A model generated the notes under the pieces. That model was given only the letters and a program-made list of their open reading frames with translations. It made no database searches and was not told where the DNA came from. From IMG/VR virus record IMGVR_UViG_3300046795_000078, positions 1-27,079 of that record: DNA of 27,079 nucleotides; one strand, given 5' to 3'. The translations under genes and the position numbers were made by a program. Of this stretch, positions 3,704 through 26,418 are shown piece by piece (position 1 is the first letter of the stretch; every line of letters starts with the position of its first letter). The stretch is from a virus (Duplodnaviria > Caudoviricetes).

Positions 3704-4183
3704 TCAGTAGTTCCTCCTCATTCGTCCCGTCTCTCGAAACGAGACATAGCTCTCCGCTCCGACGATGATGTGATCGACCAGCTCCAGCTCGAACAGCGCC
3801 ATCAGGGTCTGGAAGTGATTGGTCATGTCGATGTCCGCCCGACTCGGCTCCGGGATGCCGCTCGGGTGGTTGTGCGCGCAGATGATCGCGCAGCTGTTCT
3901 TCTCGCCCACTGCCGCCATGAGGATCATCCGGAGCGATACCTGGATGTCGGTCAGGCCGCCCCTGGCGACTTCCTGGATGCCCAGCAGCCGCCGCTTGGC
4001 GTCGAGGTGCAGCGCCAGGAAGAGCTCCTGCACCTGGGGCCGGAGGATCGGGACGACGACGGCCGCTGCGTCGGCCGCCGTCGCGATCTGTTTGCTGTCG
4101 ACCAGCACCTTCGCGGGGTGTGTCCGGTACTGCACGATCAGCTCGCGGGCGAAGTGCGGGCCGTGCGGGCGCTTCGGCATCAC
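3704..4183 (-). CDS. radC: RadC-like JAB domain protein
   Basis: QE.F..L.LD, AHNHPSG.PEPS.AD and LVDHIIVG motifs. Confidence 0.92.
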   Translation of the reverse strand: MMPKRPHGPHFARELIVQYRTHPAKVLVDSKQIATAADAAAVVVPILRPQVQELFLALHLDAKRRLLGIQEVARGGLTDIQVSLRMILMAAVGEKNSCAIICAHNHPSGIPEPSRADIDMTNHFQTLMALFELELVDHIIVGAESYVSFRETGRMRRNY

Positions 4184-6048: not shown

Positions 6049-6302
6049 CGTGTCCGCTCCTGTTCCTTCTGCTTGGTTTCGTCGTCCATCCGCCGATACC
6101 CGGCCCGGTGCGCGGCCGTTGCGAACTGCAGCGCACACGTCAGCCGGTCAAACAATCCGTTGTAGCCGCGCCAGCCCTGCCACTTTCGCGGCTGTGCGCG
6201 TTGGGCGTGGTTCTGCCACTCGTACCAGCCTGCGAGCTGGCGATGACACCAGGGGCAGCGAGGACGGTTAGCCGGCATCCCGACAATCGGCGCGCGTTTC
6301 AT
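6045..6302 (-). CDS. hypothetical protein
   Basis: MKRAP..CPWC..; SD CAGGAG; ATGA coupling. Confidence 0.6.
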   Translation of the reverse strand: MKRAPIVGMPANRPRCPWCHRQLAGWYEWQNHAQRAQPRKWQGWRGYNGLFDRLTCALQFATAAHRAGYRRMDDETKQKEQERTR

Positions 6303-6898
6303 CGTTTCCGCTCCTGCTTTCTCCGTTTCCACTCCAACCAGACTGCCGCCTGGAGGTGGCACGGCGAGATGCCGATACCTGCTGCGGCTTGTCGGTACGC
6401 CGTCGCGATCGCGTCGTACTGACTCGTCGTCCGTGGTCCGTCGTCGTCCAGGTCGCCTGTCGCCGCGCCACTCGCGTGCCGATCGATCACGACTGCCCAA
6501 TCGTTTCCGCTCAAGGCTTCGGCGAACGCGGCCACCTTCGGCGCCTTCTCGAAGTAGTCAGCCGGCGAGGTGGCCCGCGCTTTCAGCACCTTCCGCGCGG
6601 TGCGAAGGTTCCGTCTGGTGGCGCCGCCTTCCGGCTTCACTTTCAATCCCTGGATCAACCGCTCCGCGATCGTCCAATTCATCGTCCATTCACACTGCGG
6701 GCTGATGGCGGCGACCACGGCCGCCACGGTGCGGCAGTCGTAGCTCCAGGTCTTCGCGGTGCGGTCGATCAACTGGCGGGCGTCGAGATACCAGCAGCGC
6801 CCCTGCTCGCGGGCGTCTGGCGTCAGGTTCGCCCAGGTGCCCACCAAGCGGGCGCGCATCCGGGCGGTGTCGGCGGGGGTGTAGCGGCGGGCGCTCAT
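6299..6898 (-). CDS. DUF7178-like protein (helical, DNA-glycosylase-like fold suggested)
   Basis: G..WY..A, AAVVAAISP...W..N, PKV.AF, V.IDRHA and Y..AA....P..LQA..W motifs recognised from memory. Confidence 0.7.
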   Translation of the reverse strand: MSARRYTPADTARMRARLVGTWANLTPDAREQGRCWYLDARQLIDRTAKTWSYDCRTVAAVVAAISPQCEWTMNWTIAERLIQGLKVKPEGGATRRNLRTARKVLKARATSPADYFEKAPKVAAFAEALSGNDWAVVIDRHASGAATGDLDDDGPRTTSQYDAIATAYRQAAAGIGISPCHLQAAVWLEWKRRKQERKR

Positions 6899-7509: not shown

Positions 7510-7700
7510 GGTCGCTGCTCCTGTCTCATTTGCGGGGTTGTGACCGCAAGCCCTATCGAGCTTCCCGCATTACACGGCGCCGGCGGTCGAAGTGGCCGGC
7601 GGCGCCGATCCTCTGCGCTTAGGGCGGCATCCAGGAACCCGTAGCGGGCCTGTGCTGCGGCGATCGCGTTCAGGGTGGCGGGTTGCATCGCGTTAGTCAT
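7410..7700 (-). CDS. hypothetical protein (uncertain)
   Basis: SD AGGAG precedes ATG 7700, but the 3' end overlaps the SpoVG-like gene by 100 nt. Confidence 0.35.
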   Translation of the reverse strand: MTNAMQPATLNAIAAAQARYGFLDAALSAEDRRRRPLRPPAPCNAGSSIGLAVTTPQMRQEQRPCESGSRRPRQGTHRASSQTPSCTSIVGTTTAS

Positions 7701-7930: not shown

Positions 7931-9028
7931 TCAGAAGTCGAGCACGCGGGAGGCCGCGCGGTCCAGGTCGATCCGCTCGTCCGCGTAGGGGCTCATCTGC
8001 GACAGTCGCGTAAGGCCGTGCACGATTCCCCACGCGGTTCGCGGGTTTCTGTCGTGGCGCTCGGCCATGTCGTACGCGTCGCCGATCTGCTGCTTGGTGG
8101 CGATCTCGCGCTTGAAGAGGGCGTCGATTACTTCGGGCTTGCCGGGACCGAGCTGCCGGACGTGTGCGGCTTGGAGCTTGGCTGTCTCGTCGCGGGCGCT
8201 CAAGTTCGAGTAGTCGTTGAACACCTGCCCGATCCCGCGGTGCCATTCGCGGCGGATCTTGTCGCCGTAATGCCGCATGCTGAACGCCGCGATCGTGCGG
8301 CTGTTCCAGATGATGAAATTCCCGCAGATCCGCTCACACAGGCCGAGGGTCAAATCGAGCCTTTTGGCGCCTACCTCTGAGTTCACGAGCAGGATGAAGC
8401 GGGTCAGATGCTCTCCAGGTGCGGCCGGGTCTGCGATGCCTACGCCTTCGTTCTGCAGACAGATGTAGGCGTCACGGTCGCCGCTGAACCCGACGCAGGG
8501 CTCGCGGTCGCCGCCGAAGTCGCCGCGGCGGTACACCAGCGGGGCTTGCCACTCGGGGTTATTGCTCTGCAGTGCTTGGAGGCGGGCCACGACGTTCGAG
8601 GTGAGGATGCGCGAGTATCCCGGCGAGGTGAGGGCGCGCAGTTCCAGGTGCGCGGGCGTACCGTTCGCGGGACACTGCCGAAGGTAAAGCTGATGACTGG
8701 CGCGCGGCGCTACGCTCAAGCCGTGATTGAGGCAGGCGGCGGCAAGCGTCGAGGGCAGTTGCCGGAGATATGCGGCCGGTGATTTTGCGGCGCCGGCCAA
8801 CTGGTTCAGACTCCAATGGGTCAGATGAGCTACGTTGCCACTCTTCCCGACAACGCCTAAGTCGTTGTCGCCGTGTGAGATAACGCGGATCATGTCGCTG
8901 TCCGTGTCGAGCGTTCTGCACTGATCGGCTTCGGCTTTGAGGTGATCGAGCATCGCGTCGAGGGTGCTGAAGCGCTCGTCGTCCGGGCGTGTACTCCACT
9001 GTTGGTGCATCGTGTAGTTGTTCGCCAT
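7931..9028 (-). CDS. DUF932 family protein
   Basis: QWSTRPDDERFSTL, LTHWS..QL, NSEVG, ERICGN.IIW and T.WG.V.GLT motifs; SD ACAGGAG. Confidence 0.85.
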   Translation of the reverse strand: MANNYTMHQQWSTRPDDERFSTLDAMLDHLKAEADQCRTLDTDSDMIRVISHGDNDLGVVGKSGNVAHLTHWSLNQLAGAAKSPAAYLRQLPSTLAAACLNHGLSVAPRASHQLYLRQCPANGTPAHLELRALTSPGYSRILTSNVVARLQALQSNNPEWQAPLVYRRGDFGGDREPCVGFSGDRDAYICLQNEGVGIADPAAPGEHLTRFILLVNSEVGAKRLDLTLGLCERICGNFIIWNSRTIAAFSMRHYGDKIRREWHRGIGQVFNDYSNLSARDETAKLQAAHVRQLGPGKPEVIDALFKREIATKQQIGDAYDMAERHDRNPRTAWGIVHGLTRLSQMSPYADERIDLDRAASRVLDF

Positions 9029-9511: not shown

Positions 9512-9821
9512 GCCTGGGCGCTCAATGCCGGCGTCCAGGTGCCGCGGCGACCAGGTGAACGAACCAACGACCGAACCCGCGGCGCGGTCCCCTGGGGCTC
9601 GATGCCCGGCGCCGCGGTCGTGGCCGCCGTCGCGTTCGATGTTCCAGGTTGAATGTCCGTCAGAATAGCCCGGCACCCCCGGCGGCGAGGCGCTGTATCC
9701 CGATAACTTTTTTCAAAAAATTTTGGGTGGTCGGATGGTTGTGGATACGGTAGAGTAGAGGCGAACCGAGCGCATGTCAGTGCACTCGGCCCGCACGAGA
9801 CACCGAAAGGAAAGGCTTTCG

Positions 9822-10388
9822 ATGCCTGCCGTAGTATGCGCTCGCTGCCGAGCTGAATTCAAAATCAAACCGAGTGCAGTCGTCGGTGCTCGATACTGTT
9901 CATGGGCGTGTCGTTACCCGGCCGACGCGTCCGTATTCTGGGGGCTGGTAGACAGAGAGAGCGGGCACCGGGTCTCCTACGTAGTTGGCGAATGTTGGCT
10001 CTGGAAGGGGAACCGGGGCGTTCGTGGCTACGGACGATTTTCGCGAAGGCACCGAAACTATCTCGCACATCGCATCGCGTGGGAGCTGATTCACGGCCCC
10101 GTTCCAGTTGGCCTCTTGGTCTGCCACCACTGCGATGTGCCGCATTGCGTTCGACCGACCCATCTCTTCCTTGGAACAGGCAAAGACAATCAACAGGACG
10201 CCGCAAGGAAAGGTCGAATGAGAGGCGAGCGGCATTCCAGGGCGCAACTGACGAATGGACAGGTTGAGGCACTACGGTTGGCGTGGGCACAAGGTCGGAA
10301 CACCGTACAGCTTGCGAAGCAGTTCAGCATCTCGCCGCAGAATGCCTATGCGATTGTTCATAGGAAAAGTTGGCGACATCTGCCATAA
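9822..10388 (+). CDS. HNH (HNH_3-type) homing-like endonuclease
   Basis: CWLWKG, GYG.F, AHRIAW, VCHHCD...CVRP.HLFLGT..DN..D; N-terminal CxxC..CSxxC; C-terminal HTH; SD AAAGG. Confidence 0.92.
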   Translation: MPAVVCARCRAEFKIKPSAVVGARYCSWACRYPADASVFWGLVDRESGHRVSYVVGECWLWKGNRGVRGYGRFSRRHRNYLAHRIAWELIHGPVPVGLLVCHHCDVPHCVRPTHLFLGTGKDNQQDAARKGRMRGERHSRAQLTNGQVEALRLAWAQGRNTVQLAKQFSISPQNAYAIVHRKSWRHLP

Positions 10389-13786: not shown

Positions 13787-14161
13787 GTGAAGATTCTGGA
13801 AACCGCCGCCCGGCGGACGATCCTCGGCGTCCTGCTGCTCCTCCTGAAAGAGCTCAAGCACCTCACCCGCGTCCTCGAAATCGGCGTCGATAGCTTCCGC
13901 CTCGCGCACGGCCAGCGCGCGCAGTTCACCGTCGCCGCGGACGAGTCGACCGAGCCGGCCGACCCGAACGCCGATCGCACGATTCCGCGCTACGAGAACG
14001 ACGAGCCTGAATTCCTCCGTCGCGACCTCCTCGAACACCTCGCCCGCGAACACCACATCGCCTTCGATGACTCCACAGACTTAGTACAGGTCGGGAAGGA
14101 GCTCGGATGGCTGACGTCCTCTGGGGAGTTTGCTCAGCTGCCCACGGGCTATGGTGAGTGA
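13787..14161 (+). CDS. hypothetical protein
   Basis: 124-aa ORF with GC3-rich codons; TAGACT lies 6 nt upstream. Confidence 0.65.
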   Translation: MKILETAARRTILGVLLLLLKELKHLTRVLEIGVDSFRLAHGQRAQFTVAADESTEPADPNADRTIPRYENDEPEFLRRDLLEHLAREHHIAFDDSTDLVQVGKELGWLTSSGEFAQLPTGYGE

Positions 14162-14176
14162 TCTACACTCCGCGTG

Positions 14177-14395
14177 ATGGCTGATCCTGCTCTGCACATC
14201 CTGCGCGGCCGCCACGGTACCACCCGTCCGCAGCGGACCCTTTGTGGTTTCACAGCCGCCGATGTCTCCGTCGTTGGCTGGTACGACCAAGCCACGTGCG
14301 TGGATTGTGTCCGCATCCGCGCATTGGAGAAGCAGGAAGCGCAGCGTCGGCAGCGTCGCACAGCGGCCGGCAAGCGAGCGGCTCGCCATGTCTGA
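14177..14395 (+). CDS. small Zn-binding hypothetical protein
   Basis: H..TLCG..ATCVDC. Confidence 0.55.
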   Translation: MADPALHILRGRHGTTRPQRTLCGFTAADVSVVGWYDQATCVDCVRIRALEKQEAQRRQRRTAAGKRAARHV

Positions 14396-15308
14396 CGAAC
14401 ACACGTCACAGCCGCCGCTCCCACCGCCCTGCCCTCGCCCCGATCGGGTGCTGCACGTCCCGCTGAAGCGCTTCCCGAAGGCACAGGCCGAGGCCGCCGG
14501 TGCCGCGGTCCTCGCCGCCGTCGCGGGCAACCCCCTGCTCTCCGGCTTCCGCAGCGAAAGCGAACATCCGTCCTACCACCATCGTGGCCTGCCCAGGCAG
14601 ATGCCGCCCTCGCGCGCGAACGCCGCCGCCGCGATCACGGGGGCCGAGGAAGCGCAGTTCGCCTCCTTCGAAGTCTCGCTCGGCGGGCGCCAGCAGCTCG
14701 CCGCGCTCCTCTCGGCGGCCGACGTGCCGGCGCGCGATCTCCAGCTCGCCGCGCTCCTGGTCGATCCGGCCAACGACGGCGCCAGCCTGGCGCAGCTCTG
14801 TGCGTTCTCGCGTGTGTCGCTGCGCCGTCTGCTCGATTTCGTCAAGGACGCGGCCCTCATTCGCGGCCAGGTGCACGCGCTGGTCGCCGTCGGCGAGCGG
14901 CTCCCCGAGGTGGCCGCCGGCCTCATGGAAGATGCCGTGCCCGCCGATCGGCCCTGCCCGACCTGCCGCGGGCTGCGTCAACTCCTCGACGATCCGACGC
15001 CGCAGACCCCCAACCCGGTGCCGCGCGTCTGCAAGACCTGCGACGGCACCGGGACGGTCCACTATCATCCCGAGACCGAGCTTCGCAAGGTCGCGCTGCA
15101 GCTCGGGAAGCTGCTCGACAAGCCGGGCTCGACCAACAACGTGTTCGTCGCGACGAAGTTCGGCGACGGCACCGCGCCCAGCTTCAACGCCTCGGTCATG
15201 GAGCTCGATCAGGTGCTCGACGGGAAGACGCGCGATCGATTCGGACGGCGGATCGTCGAGGGCGAGGCGCAGCCGTCTGCGGAGGCGCCGCCCGAGGAGC
15301 ACGCATGA
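14388..15308 (+). CDS. putative terminase small subunit-like protein with DnaJ-type Zn finger
   Basis: Lies just upstream of TerL; HTH-like segment SLAQLCAFSRVSLRRL; CPTCRG..CKTCDGTG. The call is mainly positional. Confidence 0.5.
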   Translation: MSDEHTSQPPLPPPCPRPDRVLHVPLKRFPKAQAEAAGAAVLAAVAGNPLLSGFRSESEHPSYHHRGLPRQMPPSRANAAAAITGAEEAQFASFEVSLGGRQQLAALLSAADVPARDLQLAALLVDPANDGASLAQLCAFSRVSLRRLLDFVKDAALIRGQVHALVAVGERLPEVAAGLMEDAVPADRPCPTCRGLRQLLDDPTPQTPNPVPRVCKTCDGTGTVHYHPETELRKVALQLGKLLDKPGSTNNVFVATKFGDGTAPSFNASVMELDQVLDGKTRDRFGRRIVEGEAQPSAEAPPEEHA

Positions 15309-15499
15309 CGTCGACACGGATGTCGTTCATCACCGGCAGCACCGACGACATTCACGTGCTGCCAAGCAACGAGCCGATTGACGAGTTCCTGAAACACGAC
15401 AAGGCGCGTACGTGCTGGTGTGAGCCAGACCTCAACGAGCAGCCCGATGGCGTGATGATGGTTCTGCACCATCCCGCTGACTCTGTCGAGGAGGAATAA
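15305..15499 (+). CDS. small His/Cys protein
   Basis: IHVLP..H...CWCEP...LHH, a common phage micro-protein pattern. Confidence 0.65.
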   Translation: MTSTRMSFITGSTDDIHVLPSNEPIDEFLKHDKARTCWCEPDLNEQPDGVMMVLHHPADSVEEE

Positions 15500-15500
15500 C

Positions 15501-16766
15501 ATTTATTCCCAGACCCTCGTCGACCGCACCCGCGCCGCGCTCGAAGCGACCTTCGCCGATCGCCTCCCTTCCGGCCTGCTCGACATCCCGCCCGAGGACA
15601 TCCAGGGGTGGCGTGTTCGCCTGGCCGATGTGTTCAACGAGCGGGGCGAGCAGCAGCGCCCGCTCACGCCCGAGGAGCTCTACTTCGTCTTCTCCGAGCG
15701 CACCCGGTCCCGGATCGACTACGCCTACTGGGCCGAGCGCTACTCGACCATCAACCTGGAAGCCTCGACCATCGGCCCGCTCTATCCGCTGTGGGAATCG
15801 CAGCGCCTGATCCTCGCCGAGATCGGCCGCATCCAGCTCGAACGGACCGACTCGCACTACCCCGACGGCGTACTCATCGACATCCTCAAGGCGCGGCAGC
15901 TCGGCGCCTCGACGCTCTGCAGCTCGATCCTCTGCCACCGCACGACGACACACCCGCACACCTTCGGCCTGCTCGCCAGCGACGTGCCCGACAACAGTGC
16001 GTTCCTCTACGACATGTACGAGCGCCAACTCGATCACCTGCCCTGGTGGATGAAGCCGGTCGTCGTCGAACGGGTCAAGAACGACGAGATCGTCTACGAC
16101 ACCGGCGCGCGGCTCTTCGTCGGCGCGAGCAAATCGACGCGCGGGGCCGACAAGCTGAAACGCGATTCGATCGACGGCAAGAAGGGGCAGCTCGGTCGCG
16201 GCCGCACCATCGCCGTCGCGCACCTCTCGGAGATTGCGACCTGGACGAACCCGCAGCAGATCGACAGCTCGTTTCTCCCCACCGTGCCCTACTCGCCGGT
16301 CGCCTTCGTCGCCAAGGAATCGACGGCGCAGGGGTGGGGGCCGCGCAATTACTGGTGCCAGGACTTCCAGATCGCCAAGGCCGGCAAGGGCCGCTTCCGC
16401 GCCATCTTCATTCCCTGGTATGCCGAGTCGAGCAAGTACCGCCTGCCGGCGCCGCTCTCCTGGTCGCCCGCCGACGACACGCTCGCGCACGCGCGTCGGG
16501 CCGAGGAGTACGGGCCGCGCTGGATGCACCGCCGTGTCGCGCTCACCCGCGACCAGCTCTATTGGTACGAGACCGCACGCGAGGAGGCCGACGCCAAGGA
16601 TCTGCTGAGCGACTTCCTGCAGGAATTCCCGGCTGATGACGAGGAAGCGTTCCAGATGGCCGGGCACTCGATCTTCACGGTCAAGACGATCGAGCGGATC
16701 AAGAGTCAGGCACGGCCGCTGTGCGGGATGGTCGAGATCAGCCCGAACCGGCAGCTCGGGGTTTAG
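15501..16766 (+). CDS. terL: terminase large subunit, ATPase domain only
   Basis: Walker A variant LKARQLGAST, GRG.T plus Walker B AHLSE, coupling motif ESTA, FIPWY and QEFP. The proposed start is ATT 15501 after GAGGAGG; the first canonical start is GTG 15630. Confidence 0.88.
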   Translation: MYSQTLVDRTRAALEATFADRLPSGLLDIPPEDIQGWRVRLADVFNERGEQQRPLTPEELYFVFSERTRSRIDYAYWAERYSTINLEASTIGPLYPLWESQRLILAEIGRIQLERTDSHYPDGVLIDILKARQLGASTLCSSILCHRTTTHPHTFGLLASDVPDNSAFLYDMYERQLDHLPWWMKPVVVERVKNDEIVYDTGARLFVGASKSTRGADKLKRDSIDGKKGQLGRGRTIAVAHLSEIATWTNPQQIDSSFLPTVPYSPVAFVAKESTAQGWGPRNYWCQDFQIAKAGKGRFRAIFIPWYAESSKYRLPAPLSWSPADDTLAHARRAEEYGPRWMHRRVALTRDQLYWYETAREEADAKDLLSDFLQEFPADDEEAFQMAGHSIFTVKTIERIKSQARPLCGMVEISPNRQLGV

Positions 16767-16776
16767 ACTGGTCGTC

Positions 16777-17082
16777 ATGCTGACCCGTCGCGCCATGCTT
16801 CGGTCGCTGTTGTCGCTGCCCATCGCGGCGACCCTCGACATCGAGAAGCTGCTCTGGATTCCGGGGCAGATGGTCGTCGTTCCGCAGACCTACGGCGTGC
16901 ACCGGATCATGCTCGACGACATCAACGCGGCCACGCTGCGGATGTGGGTGCCGGCGATCGAACAGTTCTTCACGGCCGATCCGTTCCTGAAGATGTTGAA
17001 AGATCGCACACAGCTCTCGTTCGACGGCCGCACGATCGAAGTGCCGATCCTCTACGATCGGCAGCCGGTGGGCCAGGGCTGA
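16777..17082 (+). CDS. twin-arginine-type leader fused to a major-capsid N-terminal paralog (101 aa)
   Basis: MLTRRAMLRSLL leader; the C-terminal half aligns by hand to the spliced MCP N-terminus (19/49 identities). Confidence 0.75.
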   Translation: MLTRRAMLRSLLSLPIAATLDIEKLLWIPGQMVVVPQTYGVHRIMLDDINAATLRMWVPAIEQFFTADPFLKMLKDRTQLSFDGRTIEVPILYDRQPVGQG

Positions 17083-18062
17083 TGGCTGACTTCATCTCCT
17101 TCCCCCGCGACGAGTCCCTCCTCTCGCTCAACCAGCAAGCCCTCCAGCTCGCTCTGGCCGACGCGCCCTACCGGGTCGCGCCCGGCTACGGGATGCGCTC
17201 GCTCAAGCCTTCAGAGTGGAAATCGCTCCTGGCCGAGCCCGACGACGATGGGCTCTTCGATCGCCTGCTGGTCTTCGAACCTCCCCGCAAAGGGTTCCTC
17301 TACATCGTCTCGGTCGACGTCAGCAACGGCATCGGCCAGGACCGGTCGGTCATCGACGTCATCCGTGTCGCCACCATCCGCGAGCCGAACGAGCAGGTGG
17401 CGCAGTTCGTCACCGACCAGATCGATCCGTCCGACCTCGCCTTCGTCGTCGACACCGTCGGCCGGCTCTACAAGGGCCGCGACGATATGCCGGCCGAGGT
17501 CGCCATCGAGTGCGGCCAGGGACCGGGCATGACGACTCAGGACGTGCTGTTCAAGCAGATCGGCTATCCGAACCTCTACGTCTGGCAGGTGCTCGACAAC
17601 CGCGCCCTGAGTAAATCCTTCACCACCAAACTCGGCTGGTGGACGACCCGGCAATCCCGCCCGATCATCATCCAGGGGCTGCACCACGCGCTGAAAACGG
17701 TCGACCCACATACCGGCGTGCCCGACTTCCGGCTCAACTCCCCGCTCACGATCCGGGAGCTGCGGACCTTCGTCAGCCCTGGTCCGGTGTGGATGGCCGA
17801 AGCCGCCGAAGGCGCCTTCGACGACTGCGTCATGTCGGCGGCGATCGGGAATTTCGTCGCCGAGCGCAAGCAGCAGGGCTACCGCGAGACCATCCACGAA
17901 ACCCGTCGACGCCTCAGCGAAGAGTCGGCCCGGCTGACCGCACGGCGCCAGCAGGATAAGAACCCGGTGACGCCGCAGACGACCGACATCACGGCGGCTG
18001 AACTGATGGGACAGCCCGATCCGTACGAGTCGGAGTGGGAGACCAATCCGCACATGCTTTAG
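17082..18062 (+). CDS. terL: terminase large subunit, RNase H-like nuclease domain only
   Basis: YIVSVDVSNG...D, VAIE, GWWTT..SRP and GAFDDCVMSAAI. The ATG overlaps the upstream TGA (TGATG). Confidence 0.88.
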   Translation: MADFISFPRDESLLSLNQQALQLALADAPYRVAPGYGMRSLKPSEWKSLLAEPDDDGLFDRLLVFEPPRKGFLYIVSVDVSNGIGQDRSVIDVIRVATIREPNEQVAQFVTDQIDPSDLAFVVDTVGRLYKGRDDMPAEVAIECGQGPGMTTQDVLFKQIGYPNLYVWQVLDNRALSKSFTTKLGWWTTRQSRPIIIQGLHHALKTVDPHTGVPDFRLNSPLTIRELRTFVSPGPVWMAEAAEGAFDDCVMSAAIGNFVAERKQQGYRETIHETRRRLSEESARLTARRQQDKNPVTPQTTDITAAELMGQPDPYESEWETNPHML

Positions 18063-18074
18063 AATGCCGGGCGG

Positions 18075-18245
18075 GTGCGAGCCATCGACTTCACGCTCCC
18101 CGTCCGCTTCGCCGCCGACTGCCCGGCGTGCGTCAGCTGTGGCGAACCCTGGTGCCCGGTCCACGACATGCACTACGCCGAGTGTCCGTGTCCGGGACCG
18201 ATGTCCGACCCCGACGATGATGAAGAAGAAGACAAGGACCGGTAA
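18075..18245 (+). CDS. Cys-rich micro-protein
   Basis: Manual translation MRAIDFTLPVRFAADCPACVSCGEPWCPVHDMHYAECPCPGP... Confidence 0.6.
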   Translation: MRAIDFTLPVRFAADCPACVSCGEPWCPVHDMHYAECPCPGPMSDPDDDEEEDKDR

Positions 18246-18387
18246 GAAGAAGAACCCGCAGGACACGACGCTCCGCAACGTGCGCGCGACGAGCAAACGG
18301 ATTGCTGACCTCGCCCTGCGTCTGAGCCGGGTCGAAACGCGTGTCGCCGATCTCGAAGATGCGGTGAATCCTCCAGAGAAAGACTGA
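18217..18387 (+). CDS. small basic coiled-coil protein
   Basis: MMKKK..DTTLRNVRA..LSRVETRVADLE. Confidence 0.55.
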   Translation: MMKKKTRTGKKKNPQDTTLRNVRATSKRIADLALRLSRVETRVADLEDAVNPPEKD

Positions 18388-18390
18388 GCG

Positions 18391-18786
18391 ATGAAGATCA
18401 CCCTCTCGCTCGACGACGATTTCGCAGAGGCGTACACCAAAGAGGCCCAGTCCCGGCGGCTGTCGGTCGCCGCCGTCATCGCGCAACGGCTGCTGACCGC
18501 GCTGCCGCTCGACCCACGGAAGCGTGGCATCGTCATCGGTGACGCGCAGATCCTGCAGGAGCTGGAGTCGATTCTCGGTGGCGGCAGTCTGACGTCCGAA
18601 CGCGACCTCGTTGAGAAGGTCCGCCGCCTCGCCCGGATCAAGTTCGGGGACCACACCTTTTCGATCACGCCAGGGCAGTTCGAGGAGCTCAAGTTCCGCG
18701 CGACCAAAACCGGCCGCTCGGTCGAGCAACTGATCGCCGACCTCTACACGCGGATGTCGCAGGATCTGTTCCGCACGGTCGCTTGA
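18391..18786 (+). CDS. protein with two ribbon-helix-helix-like segments
   Basis: MKITLSLDDD..A..RRLSV..VI and FSITPGQFEELK.RA..GRSVEQLI. Confidence 0.6.
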   Translation: MKITLSLDDDFAEAYTKEAQSRRLSVAAVIAQRLLTALPLDPRKRGIVIGDAQILQELESILGGGSLTSERDLVEKVRRLARIKFGDHTFSITPGQFEELKFRATKTGRSVEQLIADLYTRMSQDLFRTVA

Positions 18787-18800
18787 ACAAGGAGTTGCTG

Positions 18801-19496
18801 ATGATTCGACAGCGACAGAGTGGTCTCTACGTCCTGTTGTTGATGCTGGGGATCTCACTTGGATCGGCCGTCGCGATCTTCGGCCAGCAGGCAACCGTCA
18901 CCTCGACCTATCCGACCATGCCACAGAACGTCGCCCAGTGGTCGGGCACCTCGGTCACCGCCGCCGCCGCGCTCTCCGATACCTCCGGCAACCCGACCGC
19001 GCCGCAGATCGGTGCCGACGGCATGGTCTGGGACACGACGCAGTGGGTCCGGCGCAAGGGCACGGCGCTGGCGACCTTCCCAACGGCCGTCACGCTCACA
19101 TCGAGGAATGCTGTCGGCGCAGCGGTCATGGAGCACTCGTCGCGCTGGTCGGTCATCCACAACCCGGCGGCCAGCTCGCAGGCGACTGCGTCGATCGCCG
19201 CAGAAGGCTCGGTGCGCCACATCGCCGACTGCATCTCGTTCTCGGCGGGTTCGACCACCGCCCCGGCACTGACCGCGCTCACCGTGAACCTGCGCGACGG
19301 GGCGACCGGTGCCGGCACGATCATCTGGACACACGAAGTGGTGATCTCGAACGCGACCGGGCAGAACGTGCTGCCCTACAGCCAGTGCGGACTGAACCTG
19401 CCCGGTACCACGAATACGGCCCTCACGCTGGAGTTTTCGGCGCTGCTGACGAACCTGATTGAGTCGGTCAGTTTGAGCGGCTTCAACCTGCAGTGA
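18801..19496 (+). CDS. Ala/Thr/Ser-rich beta-type protein with signal peptide/TM (possibly virion-associated)
   Basis: SD AAGGAG; hydrophobic N-terminus LYVLLLMLGISLGSAVAIFG. Confidence 0.7.
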   Translation: MIRQRQSGLYVLLLMLGISLGSAVAIFGQQATVTSTYPTMPQNVAQWSGTSVTAAAALSDTSGNPTAPQIGADGMVWDTTQWVRRKGTALATFPTAVTLTSRNAVGAAVMEHSSRWSVIHNPAASSQATASIAAEGSVRHIADCISFSAGSTTAPALTALTVNLRDGATGAGTIIWTHEVVISNATGQNVLPYSQCGLNLPGTTNTALTLEFSALLTNLIESVSLSGFNLQ

Positions 19497-19505
19497 GCTG
19501 AGGAG

Positions 19506-20000
19506 ATGCCCCGCCAGCGCTTCCTCTGCCCCCGCTGCGGCTTCATCGGCGAGGTCTGGTATCCGATGCCGGAGTACTCACCGGCGCACCAGCGGCTCAC
19601 CGCCTATCCGCCCTGCCCGAACTGCGCGATCGAATTCCCGGCGCCGGTCTCCCAGGAGCTGACGCCCTACCCCGAACGCATGACCCACGACCTGCTGACC
19701 GGCGGCACCGGGCTCGACGTCCTCAACGCCACCGGCGACGCCGAGGTCCGGATCTCCTCCCTCTCGGAGATCCGGACGATCGAAAACGAATCGCTGCGCC
19801 GCGCGCGCAACGGCGACGGCAGCCCGATGGTCTTCAGAGGCTTCAGTCAGAACCGCTCCAACCGCCACGTCAACACCTTCAGCGGCACCCCACTCGAAAC
19901 GAACAAACCGGAGAAAATCGATCCCCGCGCGATGCGGACGACGCAGGGCCGGCCGATCACCGCGGCTGCCATCCCCGAGTCACAAGCACCGCGTGAGTAA
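19506..20000 (+). CDS. FmdB-like zinc-ribbon protein
   Basis: MP...F.CPRCG...CPNC; SD GAGGAG; lies upstream of the portal. Confidence 0.65.
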   Translation: MPRQRFLCPRCGFIGEVWYPMPEYSPAHQRLTAYPPCPNCAIEFPAPVSQELTPYPERMTHDLLTGGTGLDVLNATGDAEVRISSLSEIRTIENESLRRARNGDGSPMVFRGFSQNRSNRHVNTFSGTPLETNKPEKIDPRAMRTTQGRPITAAAIPESQAPRE

Positions 20001-20005
20001 CTGAT

Positions 20006-20245
20006 ATGCGCTACCGCAAGAAGGCCGTCGAGTGCGACCTCATCCTGTTCGCCGGGTTTGGCGATCCGCTTCCTGCCGGAGTGGAGGTCCGGATCAACCA
20101 AGGACGGTCTGAGGTCTGGAACGAGCTGCACCAATCGTGGATCGGCCTCGTCGCTGGTGATTTCATCAACGTCTCCACGCCCGGCGACGTGTACCCGATC
20201 AAAGCGGACGTCGTCGCCGCGTCCTATGAACGGATCGCCGAGTAA
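20006..20245 (+). CDS. conserved small phage protein (PGDYG-like)
   Basis: MRYRKK.VE..GDFI...GDVYPIK.DV...SYE. Confidence 0.7.
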   Translation: MRYRKKAVECDLILFAGFGDPLPAGVEVRINQGRSEVWNELHQSWIGLVAGDFINVSTPGDVYPIKADVVAASYERIAE

Positions 20246-22444
20246 ATGGCACCTGCCGTACTCACGTCACTAAGTGCCAACAGGGAAAACCCGCTCCTGC
20301 GCGCCACCGACACCTTCCTCAAGCCCGGCCAGACCACCGGCCCGGTGCACGACTGGATCAAGGAAGCGGTCGCGGAGGGCGAAGCCTTCATGCAGGCTGA
20401 TCCCTGCTGGGACAATATCGATCGCAACGCCGACTACATCCTCGGCCGGCAACGCGCCCTGCAGATCACCGAGCTCAGGCCGGCCTACGTCAGTCACGCG
20501 GTCCTCAACGAAACCAAACGCACACGCAAACGGCACATCTCGGCGCTGACCGACCTCAAGCCGGTCTACGCCTATCGCACGCCGAATCCGAACTTCCAGA
20601 AACAATCCCTTCTCCTCAATCAGCTCACCGTCGTCCACTGGATCAACACCTTCGCCGATCTCGCCCTGGCCGACGCCGCCGACTACGCCTTCGTCGCCGG
20701 CTCCGGTGACATCGTCTGCGAGTACGACCCCTACTACGGGCCGATGGGCGACATCGTCATGAGCGCGCGCGATCCGCGCGACACGATTCCGATTCGCCCC
20801 AGCCGCGACGGCAGCGTTCAAAACTGGTTCGGCATGATCATCCGCGAAGCGCATTCGCTGAACGTGCTGAAGCAGATGTATCCCAACAACCCGGCACTGC
20901 TCCGGCAGTCGGCCTCGCCCTGGGGCGGCGGCGTCTTCACCAAGTGGAAGCGTGCGCTCAACCGGATCATGGGCAGCGGCTCAACCTCGACACTCTCGGG
21001 ACTGACCAAGGTCCACTCCGGCCCATCCACCCTGACCGGCAACGAAGTCATCCTCTACCGCTGCTACATCAACGACGCCTCGATCAACACGACCGCCCAC
21101 AACGTCCTGATGGGCACGGCCGGCGCGTCGTGGTCCTATCTCGTCCCGCCCGGCGGGCGCCTCTATCCGCGCAAGCGCCTCATCGTCGCCACCGAAGCCG
21201 GCATCCTCTGGGACGGGCCGAATACCTACTGGCACGGCATGTTCCCGTGCGCGCGTCTGCAGCTCGATCACGTCCCGTGGAGTTTCTTCGGCGTGCCGAT
21301 CGTCGACAGCAACCTGCCGATCCAGGACGCGATCAACGACCTGCTGAACGCGATGCTCGACGACATCCGGCAGAAGAAGCGCCCGCCGCTGGCCGGCAAC
21401 GCGCGGGTCAGCGAGCCGAAGCTCAAACAGTTCGATCCGCTCAAGCCGAACGCCCGCATCCGCACCGAGGAGCAGGTCGGCACCGGCCTCCAGGTGGTCG
21501 AGATCCCGGATCTCCCGCCCTACACCCTCGAACTGTGGCAGGCGCTCCGGACGGCGTTCCACGAAGCGACCGGCGACTCGACGCTCGATGCGCTGCAGGC
21601 CGCCGCGGCCAACCAGTCGTTCGACCCCGAGCAGATCGAAGCCTTCATGAACGCGCTCAGCCCGGAGATGAAGCTCGAAGGCCGCCGGGTCGAGGTCGGG
21701 CTGCGTGAGCTGGCCGAGATGCAGAAGGCGAACATCTTCCAGTTCTACGACCAGAAGAAGCGGATGGCGATCCTGGGCGACGCCGGCATGACGCTGGCCG
21801 ATTTCGACTACGACCCCGGCAACCTCATCCCGGCCATGAACGCTGGCGATGCCGGCTATCACCCCGAGCTCGATTCCAACCGCGACCAGAAGGACCGGGC
21901 GCAGTTCTTCCTGCAGCTCTTCACCTTCTACGTCACACCGAATTCGCTCCTCGCGCTCAACGCCAAGTCCGAGCAGCTGAAGTATGTCCAGCTCGCGCGT
22001 GCGGGCCTGTGCGACCGCTGGACGCTCTGGGAGAAGCTGGAGATTCCCAACGGCGGCAGCCCGCCGATGATGCTGCTGCCCGCTGATGAGCAGAGCACGC
22101 CGCCCGATCCGGAACTCATGGCGGCGGTCCAGTCCGGCCTGGTGCCGAACATGTCGATCGATCCGAACACGCACCAGCTCCTGACGCTCCGGGTGCCGAC
22201 CACGATCACCGAGCGGCTCCAGGCCGAGATGCAGCTCTTCGGCGGCGGCATGACGGTCGGCCCGGCCGGCTCGTCGGCGTCGAGCGGCAACCCGACCCAG
22301 GGTGGCGGGGGCGGTGGTGGCAGCATGGGCGGAGCCAGAGAGGGCGCCGGGCGGAAGGCGACCGCGCAGAAGTCCCCGTCGATCGAACGGCAGCCGTTAC
22401 CGGGCGGCGGGGAGCGGATCAAGATGAGCGAGTCGCGTCGCTGA
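20246..22444 (+). CDS. portal protein (podovirus/P22-like)
   Basis: 732-aa protein between TerL and the scaffold/MCP; N.T, DP, PW.FFG..IV....PIQ..IN pattern; low-complexity C-terminus. Confidence 0.82.
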   Translation: MAPAVLTSLSANRENPLLRATDTFLKPGQTTGPVHDWIKEAVAEGEAFMQADPCWDNIDRNADYILGRQRALQITELRPAYVSHAVLNETKRTRKRHISALTDLKPVYAYRTPNPNFQKQSLLLNQLTVVHWINTFADLALADAADYAFVAGSGDIVCEYDPYYGPMGDIVMSARDPRDTIPIRPSRDGSVQNWFGMIIREAHSLNVLKQMYPNNPALLRQSASPWGGGVFTKWKRALNRIMGSGSTSTLSGLTKVHSGPSTLTGNEVILYRCYINDASINTTAHNVLMGTAGASWSYLVPPGGRLYPRKRLIVATEAGILWDGPNTYWHGMFPCARLQLDHVPWSFFGVPIVDSNLPIQDAINDLLNAMLDDIRQKKRPPLAGNARVSEPKLKQFDPLKPNARIRTEEQVGTGLQVVEIPDLPPYTLELWQALRTAFHEATGDSTLDALQAAAANQSFDPEQIEAFMNALSPEMKLEGRRVEVGLRELAEMQKANIFQFYDQKKRMAILGDAGMTLADFDYDPGNLIPAMNAGDAGYHPELDSNRDQKDRAQFFLQLFTFYVTPNSLLALNAKSEQLKYVQLARAGLCDRWTLWEKLEIPNGGSPPMMLLPADEQSTPPDPELMAAVQSGLVPNMSIDPNTHQLLTLRVPTTITERLQAEMQLFGGGMTVGPAGSSASSGNPTQGGGGGGGSMGGAREGAGRKATAQKSPSIERQPLPGGGERIKMSESRR

Positions 22445-25451: not shown

Positions 25452-25651
25452 ATGAAGCGAATACGTGCCTTATGGAGACAGGTGATGCGAGCGAGTGATC
25501 AGCGCAGGCTGATTGGACTCGCAATCTGTCTCGTCGCCCTGTACTATCACCCCGAGTTGATGTTCTTCGTGCCTGTGATTGGGCTTGTGAACTTGGATCC
25601 AATCAATACAGCCACGACGAAGAACATCATGCCAGGTTTGGCAGACAACTT
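25452..25651 (+). CDS. major capsid protein, exon 1
   Basis: SD GAGGAGG, ATG 25452; ends ...LDPINTATTKNIMPGLADN(F) and joins exon 2 in frame. Confidence 0.8.
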
Positions 25652-26418
25652 CGAAGGAGCCGCCCGACGGTAACGTCGGTGCGTGAACGTCGCTATATGC
25701 TGGAAGTTCCTGAAGCTCACACCCCTGACAATGGGAAAGCGTGTGAGATAGTCGGCGTGGATCGTCCGACGCTGGATAATCAGCAGGAAAGACTGGTGCG
25801 TCAAGCGCAACTGGCAATGCTCTTCGACTGCGAAGGGTACATCACCGTACGCGTCGTCAATCGGGCGACGAAAGTGAAGCAGCGCAACATCGACATCTCG
25901 CCAATCGTGGGCATGAGCAATGTCTCACACGAGCTGATCGACTGGACCGCTGATGCACTTGAGAAGCTCGGTGTGCCGCGCTACGTGTGGTGGAGCAAGA
26001 AGCACGGCGGTCCGTGGGAGAAACACCTGCAAGGCCGCGTCCTCGTCTACGGATTCAAACGTGTCGAGGTATTGCTTCCGCTCATCCGCCCATTTCTCAT
26101 TGTCAAGGGAAAGCAGGCGGATCTCCTTCAACGATTTATCGACCTTCGAATGATCGCGTGGAGTGGCGGCAGTCGTCAGCGCGATTACTCTGAGGAAGAA
26201 CTTCAGCTTGCGAACACGATTCGCGATCTGAACGTGAAGGGCTACGGCTGGCGTCCAGTATCCTCAACGAGTCTACGCGATGGGTCCGAGCAGCTTCGTC
26301 GGAAGCTCGGTCGGACCGTGATGGACTCTGACCTCCGTACGAAAGACGGAGAGGCAGCAGAAATGACTGCCCGCCAGTCGATTCCGTTTTGATCGATTGG
26401 TCCTAAAGTAACAGCGCG
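25652..26418 (+). mobile_element. group I self-splicing intron (767 nt)
   Basis: Exon ends in U and the intron ends in G. IGS GAAGGAG pairs both exons. P3 GTCGCTA/TACGCGAT, P4 TGCTGG/TCAGCA, P6 AGGA..ACTGG/CCAGT.TCCT, P7 GAGTC/GACTC, P8 GGTCCGA/TCGGACC. Splicing restores DNFFKND. Confidence 0.88.
25679..26392 (+). CDS. intron-encoded LAGLIDADG homing endonuclease (true start uncertain)
   Basis: Single LAGLIDADG-type motif LAMLFDCEGYI; PFLIVKGKQA.LL..F C-terminal motif. Confidence 0.85.
   Translation: MRERRYMLEVPEAHTPDNGKACEIVGVDRPTLDNQQERLVRQAQLAMLFDCEGYITVRVVNRATKVKQRNIDISPIVGMSNVSHELIDWTADALEKLGVPRYVWWSKKHGGPWEKHLQGRVLVYGFKRVEVLLPLIRPFLIVKGKQADLLQRFIDLRMIAWSGGSRQRDYSEEELQLANTIRDLNVKGYGWRPVSSTSLRDGSEQLRRKLGRTVMDSDLRTKDGEAAEMTARQSIPF

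Follow-up and report, generated by a model that had tools for sequence, protein, structure and literature searches.

The window, the whole 27,079-nucleotide stretch of phage DNA that was analysed, carries between the two halves of its large terminase a small gene whose product joins a twin-arginine-type leader to a diverged piece of the phage's own major capsid protein (MCP). The features at this site are as follows.

15501..16766, + strand: large terminase ATPase half (phrog_6681, 5989 and 2; start inferred at ATT 15501, first GTG at 15630)
16764..16769, + strand: TAGACT, resembling a -10 hexamer, overlaps the stop of the ATPase gene and lies 7 nt upstream of the mini-gene ATG; putative leaderless promoter
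16777..17082, + strand: leader-plus-capsid-fragment gene (mini-gene), 101 aa; orthologue at the same site in L001/L003, 80% identity
16777..16836, + strand: residues 1-20, leader of twin-arginine type with RR encoded at 16786-16791 and an uncharged stretch of 11 residues ahead of D21
16837..16884, + strand: post-leader signature D-x-E-x-L-L-W-x-P-G...P, residues 21-36; motif conserved across the family
16912..17055, + strand: cargo, residues 46-93; matches, as a diverged copy, the helices of the MCP N-arm plus the initial strands that follow
17082..18062, + strand: large terminase nuclease half (phrog_24361; relatives match from residue 1)

The 101-aa ORF described in the first-pass annotation is real and reads as quoted there, and its reported position inside the terminase locus holds, the ATPase half ending at 16766 and the nuclease half beginning at 17082. 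The ATPase stop (16764-16766) is followed after 10 nt by the mini-gene start, and the mini-gene TGA overlaps the nuclease-gene ATG at 17082, a stop/start overlap which suggests that the two genes may be translationally coupled. Identical contigs in three soil runs (X3, X6 and X8) span the ATPase stop and mini-gene start, arguing against an assembly artefact, and the contig of a relative in run X1 diverges over 16940-17064. The layout at the L001/L003 terminase site matches that of the window. In L008, in which the terminase halves are 79-81% identical, the same leader lies directly before the nuclease gene but carries a different tail, one matching an internal segment of L008's own capsid protein (score 44, shuffle maximum 43, 0/5000), a match first spotted by eye and weak by profile (5.4 bits). 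Approximately 730 extra bases with further small ORFs lie between the ATPase stop and the leader gene of this phage (L008:11135-11865), indicating that the terminase site accepts insertions. The terminase of L012/L013 shows the split at this position too, but no gene separates its halves; the split is therefore older than the insertion and was not caused by the mini-gene, and an intron or frameshift element within a single terminase ORF was set aside for the same reason. Thus, the mini-gene is an optional insertion between conserved neighbours, missing in L012/L013 and replaced by another cargo in L008. The leader gene is also absent from all 39.5 kb of G049 (58% complete), while G048 was left out of the absence count because its contig ends inside the terminase.

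The -10-like hexamer noted previously is present, but the putative promoter is incomplete, as a sigma-70 scan of 14000-20500 returned no full promoter and no -35 element. TAnnnT recurs at the identical 7-nt spacing upstream of the L001 mini-gene, within different flanks, and is found 5-8 nt upstream of 5 of 52 family genes versus 9 of 329 control genes. No + strand terminator was found 3' of the mini-gene, and the 23 runs listed by a runs search included no RNA dataset. The ATPase gene probably uses a non-standard start codon after a strong Shine-Dalgarno sequence, ATT in the window (15501) and in L008 and CTG in L001. Elsewhere, the window contains the following genes, with a Twister-P5 ribozyme at 7532-7617 (- strand) in the leftward gene cluster (39.6 bits against an Rfam gathering score of 37.6).

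1144-2157, + strand: AAA_25 gene, domain match
3704-4183, - strand: RadC-like JAB gene, domain match
6299-6898, - strand: DUF7178 gene, domain match
7931-9028, - strand: DUF932 gene, weak domain match
9774-10388, + strand: HNH endonuclease gene, domain match

The capsid gene from which the cargo diverged is split by an intron.

25452..25651, + strand: MCP exon 1, encoding a hydrophobic extension of ~45 aa; the segment matched by the cargo starts at 25593
25652..26418, + strand: MCP intron, 767 nt, putatively group I-like, with a LAGLIDADG-like ORF at 25679-26392; absent in L001/L003
26419..27079, + strand: MCP exon 2, cut by the window end; the segment matched by the cargo ends at 26506

Residues 46-93 align with the spliced MCP over 49 columns, 19 of them identical, with a single gap, exactly as had been counted by hand, and the local score of 85 lies well outside that of shuffled sequences (mean 27.1, sd 4.2, maximum 49, 0/2000). 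Exon 1 alone scores 43 (7/2000 shuffles) and exon 2 alone 47 (0/2000), compared to 85 when spliced, and the full capsid match therefore requires removal of the intron, as the earlier reading had claimed. Deletion of 25652-26418 reproduces the junction present in the intronless relative L001/L003. HHalign comparison of five orthologue rows with 80 capsid proteins, a check proposed at the outset, gave a probability of 96.3 and an E value of 1.6e-9. The complete MCP of a relative matches phrog_9953 and is modelled as an HK97 fold (pLDDT 86), the model retrieving phage capsids and encapsulins in Foldseek from E 1.8e-9; a PDB sequence search with the MCP relative found 0 entries. Judged by sequence, the cargo is a homologue of the N-terminus of an HK97-fold MCP. 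It covers ~50 of 348 MCP residues and does not comprise the complete fold with E-loop, P and A domains. The AlphaFold model of the 101-aa protein contains short helices only (pTM 0.31) and has no viral fold match at E≤0.001, and Pfam and PHROGs provide no name for the protein.

In group I introns the preceding exon ends in U and the intron ends in G, and the MCP intron boundaries show both. Rfam leaves the intron unmatched, even at E 5, and its core may be an unmodelled variant; the LAGLIDADG-like ORF matches PF14528 at E 0.0022, below the cut-off. The MCP extension (25452-25592, + strand), hydrophobic and ~45 aa long, ends in G-x-x-x ahead of a conserved L-D and is possibly a membrane-anchoring propeptide. 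Hydrophobic N-terminal extensions of low sequence conservation occur in 44 of 120 MCP homologues (P0249-P0368), and the P22-type coats of L016 and L045 have similar ones. Derivation of the leader from this extension was considered and rejected, as the leader profile scores ≤4.2 bits on the extensions and RR is found in only 4 of 44.

The first 36 residues of the mini-gene product form a separate module consisting of RR, a hydrophobic stretch and D-x-E-x-L-L-W-x-P. R4 and R5 are invariant in all 44 aligned leaders, and D21, E23, L25, L26 and W27 are likewise invariant in the leader alignment (A2), although these motif positions were selected for by the DNA search pattern. The Tat motif reported previously stands in part. 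T-R-R-A-M-L is present at residues 3-8, placing RR within the first 35 residues with hydrophobic residues at +3/+4, where M replaces the F of the family; the uncharged stretch, however, is too short and no Tat HMM is matched. TATFIND, as given in the accessible part of PMC8047123, asks for at least 13 uncharged residues after RR, a length reached by 99 of 117 family leaders but not by the 11 residues of the window leader, and the window protein matches neither PF10518 nor TIGR01409. Within the family, 20 of 48 members match PF10518 below the cut-off (best 21.8 versus 22.7 bits) and 20 of 44 leaders match TIGR01409 at E≤0.1. By consensus the family has a good Tat motif, N-R-R-G-F-L with an uncharged stretch behind it, and its leaders are Ala-rich at positions -6 to -3 before L-D, a composition suggestive of a signal peptidase site. 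With its 11-residue stretch and lack of an HMM match, the window leader is Tat-like at best by extension from its family.

This leader defines a group of proteins missed by the first-pass annotation; the mini-gene belongs to a large modular family with swapped capsid pieces. A phmmer search yielded 127 clusters at 50% identity, 125 of which carry the leader or a close variant (48-200 aa), P0037 and P0124 lacking it and being removed before cargo counts. Searching DNA with a pattern that covered only the post-leader motif gave 47 viral loci, 46 with an ORF (L051 is the exception), and all 46 ORFs have RR 13-23 residues upstream of the motif, although RR was not part of the pattern. Among 7999 candidates, a 41-residue leader profile built from 44 of 50 distinct leaders recovers no fewer than 1776 clusters (90% identity), and its 120 best matches are 84-174 aa long. 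Tails are exchanged freely behind this leader: 666 of 734 leader pairs at least 80% identical carry tails of different clusters, a number possibly overstated by the strict cluster threshold, and 110 of 286 tails are singletons. Leader-bearing matches in GTDB lie in an Acidobacteria gp7 bin (the protein being that of L003), a Bryobacteraceae bin and an Armatimonadota bin, for which reason the host is likely to belong to the Acidobacteriota, bearing in mind that bins can hold stray phage contigs. Two further GTDB matches, L183 and L184, have no RR leader and were regarded as chance hits. The leader was unmatched among cultured phages, as was P0001, and the 33 cultured-phage records matched by the L016 member were matched through its capsid piece only. 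An Atlas search gave a best feature score of 0.86, to unnamed viral clusters which serve as leads only. RR leaders without D-x-E-x-L-L-W precede virion-like pieces at L163:15638-16290 (- strand), L165:8226-8657 (+ strand) and L144:10825-11103 (+ strand), and among such proteins the L088 tail matches the P22 coat N-terminus while others appear tail-part-like by eye. The class may be wider than the D-x-E-x-L-L-W family.

Where their source can be assigned, nearly all tails are pieces of virion proteins. Comparison of 165 tails with 59 profiles of recurrent gene families assigned 62 at ≥10 bits, 57 to MCP, 3 to portal and 2 to phrog_12985-type proteins, with none from a replication or regulatory family and 0/495 among shuffles; 103 of the 165 have no profile match. 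When 52 distinct locus tails, including that of the window and four found with the full-length query, were compared with 3341 ORFs of 59 records, 16 matched at E≤1e-3 and every best match was a capsid protein (shuffles 0/520). Four capsid profiles recognised 18 of the 52 at ≥10 bits (0/1040 shuffles, 0/52 reversed), capsid matches were confined to the reading frame (19/52 versus 0/260 in other frames), and 43 of 120 proteins found by their leader only scored ≥8 bits on capsid profiles (shuffles 0/1200). The capsid family of the tail was that of the phage itself in all 14 cases where this is known. When tails were compared with proteins of the genome that carries them, 20 of 36 matched the MCP at p≤0.01, against 1/34 for portal, 1/31 for terminase, and 1/21 and 0/20 for two other families. 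Ranked among MCPs, the phage's own was first in 5 of 12 cases, within the top three in 9 and only 6th-8th of 23 in 3. The 43 tails matching P22-type coat fall in four zones (21 at 1-65, 4 at 68-126, 11 at 237-315 and 7 at 332-405), counts which shared ancestry may inflate and which are unrelated to profile conservation (rho 0.07). A Walker A-like, terminase-type pattern occurs in 5 of 286 tails versus 0.005 expected. Family D is identified as capsid solely through the neighbours of its profile, SU10_MCP being present in 10% of a single Atlas cluster. Mosaic tails were detected by blastp in P0017 (both MCP ends) and P0120 (MCP and portal), and by eye as two-place mosaics in P0111, P0050 and P0094.

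Both parts of the gene are maintained by selection. Homologues exist under purifying selection, dN/dS versus L001 being 0.19 for the whole gene (p 2e-8), 0.13 for the leader and 0.24 for cargo residues 38-94 (p 2e-4), alongside 0.08-0.20 for neighbouring genes. Cargo dN/dS in the pair G010/G023 is 0.08, while the value of 0.31 in G003/G045 is based on too few changes (p 0.1). The mini-gene is 80% identical to that of L001 compared to 88-96% for terminase and portal. The cargo is 39% identical to its own MCP, whereas close relatives share 98% identity in their MCP N-arms, and synonymous sites are saturated between the cargo and the phage's own MCP gene, indicating that the capsid copy is old. 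Sites at which cargo and MCP are identical are preferentially invariant in four orthologues (13/19 versus 10/29 other sites, one-sided p 0.02), and the 101-aa ORF is intact in P0002-P0004. The whole-gene dN/dS shows that the mini-gene is not a decayed duplicate. Neither of the two outcomes which the first-pass annotation had named as fatal to its proposal, loss of significance after shuffling and lack of selected homologues, was observed.

Among 42 leader genes, 27 are on the MCP/portal strand, many adjoining terminase, and 15 are on the other strand. Several genomes contain two leader genes, and paired genes with different tails, tandem or neighbouring, are observed at L007:9983-10765, L016:2654-3615, L110:2122-2924 and L149:11361-12038. 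A tyrosine integrase or resolvase domain is encoded by 4 of 13 near-complete carriers and neither by 9, G002, the closest complete relative, being without both. The absence of both recombinase families from these nine fits a role during lytic growth.

The gene has a two-part anatomy with selection on both parts, its cargo is of capsid origin and from the phage's own lineage, cargos are swapped, and it occupies a position in the packaging operon. As a tentative reading of these features, possible but short of probable, we propose that the protein is a capsid decoy, produced late in infection and directed to Tat, which would tie up a host defence protein that recognises capsid. The mini-gene would be expressed together with the late genes, the leader would target the protein to the membrane or Tat translocase, and the cargo would bind a sensor or protease of the host that recognises epitopes on capsid. 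The bound factor may then be removed from the cytoplasm, by tethering or hitchhiker export, while real capsids form, and cargo turnover would track the epitope read by the local host defence. Assignment of tails to virion-protein classes, likeness of the cargo to the phage's own MCP, selection, in-frame matches and the optional, swappable nature of the gene all count in favour. A short linear capsid peptide activates the Lit protease. In the accessible text of three papers, capsid, portal and terminase are classes detected by host sensors (PMC13581612, PMC13601566, PMC13728456), and Tat can co-export partner proteins according to the available parts of PMC4273604 and PMC8047123. Against the decoy, the accessible part of PMC13581612 describes Avs7, 8 and 10 as binding the folded A-domain core broadly, with variable extensions unbound, whereas the cargo derives from the N-arm and is modelled with no confident fold (pTM 0.31), and capsid triggers in one screen needed oligomerization, as summarised in the available part of a review (PMC13728456). 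A sensor-binding piece could also trigger the sensor instead of blocking it, and the 11-residue stretch, the lack of a Tat HMM match and the 103 of 165 unmatched tails weigh on the same side. A broader form of the proposal, in which phages of soil bacteria, probably with Acidobacteriota hosts, keep a modular library of self-antigen decoys, a constant Tat leader with swapped capsid, portal or terminase pieces, and host pattern-recognition proteins are tethered at or exported through Tat, is doubtful.

The same observations would be read differently if a membrane-held N-arm piece bound unassembled MCP, diverting the subunits of relatives that co-infect or superinfect, or tuning the phage's own assembly, which we consider unlikely. 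The N-arm makes inter-subunit contacts in HK97 shells and is the region represented in the cargo, 21 of 43 P22-type cargos are N-terminal without relation to conservation (rho 0.07), and in 3 of 12 cases the own MCP ranks only 6th-8th of 23. A poison usually closest to the phage's own MCP and encoded in its packaging operon would, however, hit its own shells first, prophage-based exclusion cannot be general with 9 of 13 near-complete carriers lacking both recombinases, and the Walker A and portal pieces would have to be explained separately. It is quite improbable that the leader is the working part, occupying for example TatBC or another envelope target, with the capsid piece a tolerated passenger from an abundant late template. 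Leader conservation far exceeding that of any cargo, the tail-swapped pairs (666/734), singleton tails (110/286) and tails without an assigned source (103/165) are as expected of such a passenger; cargo dN/dS of 0.08-0.24, preferential retention of MCP-identical residues (p 0.02), capsid likeness surviving despite synonymous saturation against the own MCP and clustering of P22-type tails in four coat segments are not.

That the protein anchors the phage's own procapsid or packaging machinery to the membrane, or nucleates it, appears very unlikely. Such a role is hinted at by the hydrophobic extension of the own MCP and of 44 of 120 homologues, as might befit membrane-linked assembly, and by the 27 of 42 leader genes on the MCP/portal strand, many beside terminase, but the gene is missing at the L012/L013 site and from the 39.5 kb of G049, 15 of 42 leader genes are on the other strand and the MCP extension does not resemble the leader profile (≤4.2 bits). 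Moreover, cargo is swapped even at the terminase site, to an internal capsid segment in L008, which argues against a fixed anchor. We give equally little credence to full export and cleavage, yielding a capsid-like peptide in the periplasm or medium as a signal or a decoy for envelope defences. Family leaders would suit export, 99 of 117 satisfying the 13-residue rule, with Ala-rich positions -6 to -3, and 20 of 44 matching TIGR01409 at E≤0.1, but the window copy fails both length rule and TIGR01409, and reading of capsid or Walker A pieces outside the cytoplasm would seem to lack a reason. Functionless decay of a partial capsid-gene duplication is hardly credible: evolution faster than that of terminase and portal (80% versus 88-96% identity to L001) and divergence of the X1 contig over 16940-17064 are what decay would produce, yet the dN/dS of 0.19 (p 2e-8), intact ORFs in P0002-P0004 and the large family oppose it, and the selection test already refutes it unless the ORF is untranslated.

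Comparison with known systems underlines what is particular to the family. Tat signal peptides (PF10518/TIGR01409) share the invariant RR near the N-terminus and the N-R-R-G-F-L consensus followed by an uncharged stretch, but the window copy has an 11-residue stretch, no HMM match and D-x-E-x-L-L-W-x-P after the leader, and what it carries is a short stretch of virion protein instead of a folded enzyme. The phrog_9953 HK97-fold MCP shares homology with residues 46-93 over the first ~50 residues that follow its hydrophobic extension, but the 101-aa protein lacks the spine helix, P domain and A domain. Like morons and envelope superinfection-exclusion genes, the mini-gene is optional, lies between core late genes and is predicted to be envelope-targeted, possibly with its own promoter; it differs from them in that its stop overlaps the next core gene, no terminator was found, its cargo is virion-derived and most near-complete carriers lack the recombinases tested. 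Fv1 and Fv4, retrovirus-derived restriction factors, likewise represent shortened viral structural proteins that selection has preserved; they are host-encoded, eukaryotic and non-homologous, and the parallel is an analogy only. Ocr, a DNA mimic (PMC12409349), and ICP1 Gp145, an antitoxin mimic (PMC13728456), are, from the accessible text of these sources, comparable as small optional phage genes, with ligand mimicry of a defence protein being proposed here; the copy in our case is of the phage's own structural protein, with a constant leader and swappable cargo, whereas those two mimic DNA or a host antitoxin. A capsid-fragment decoy was not found in the accessible portions of these two reviews, and a preprint (bioRxiv 10.64898/2026.09.13.751334), in its available part, deals with a host fimbrial system and was set aside as not relevant. 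Constant-leader capsid-fragment proteins are undescribed in the full text searched, outside which most subscription papers lie.

Combined, the mini-gene and its family are real, selected and modular, with a putative function, and are apparently undescribed. The literature searched offers no parallel to a constant leader bearing interchangeable, selected pieces of a phage's own structural proteins, and under any reading this architecture can now be assigned to at least 1776 unannotated protein clusters. If one of the rival explanations is true, the family would represent a new route of capsid-assembly interference or of phage manipulation of Tat. If the decoy is true, it would constitute a general means of countering immunity that senses capsid, portal and terminase, in which hundreds of cargos list the epitopes under pressure, and a search for the cognate sensors would become testable. 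Should the decoy library exist, the cargos would map the epitopes read by undiscovered host sensors.
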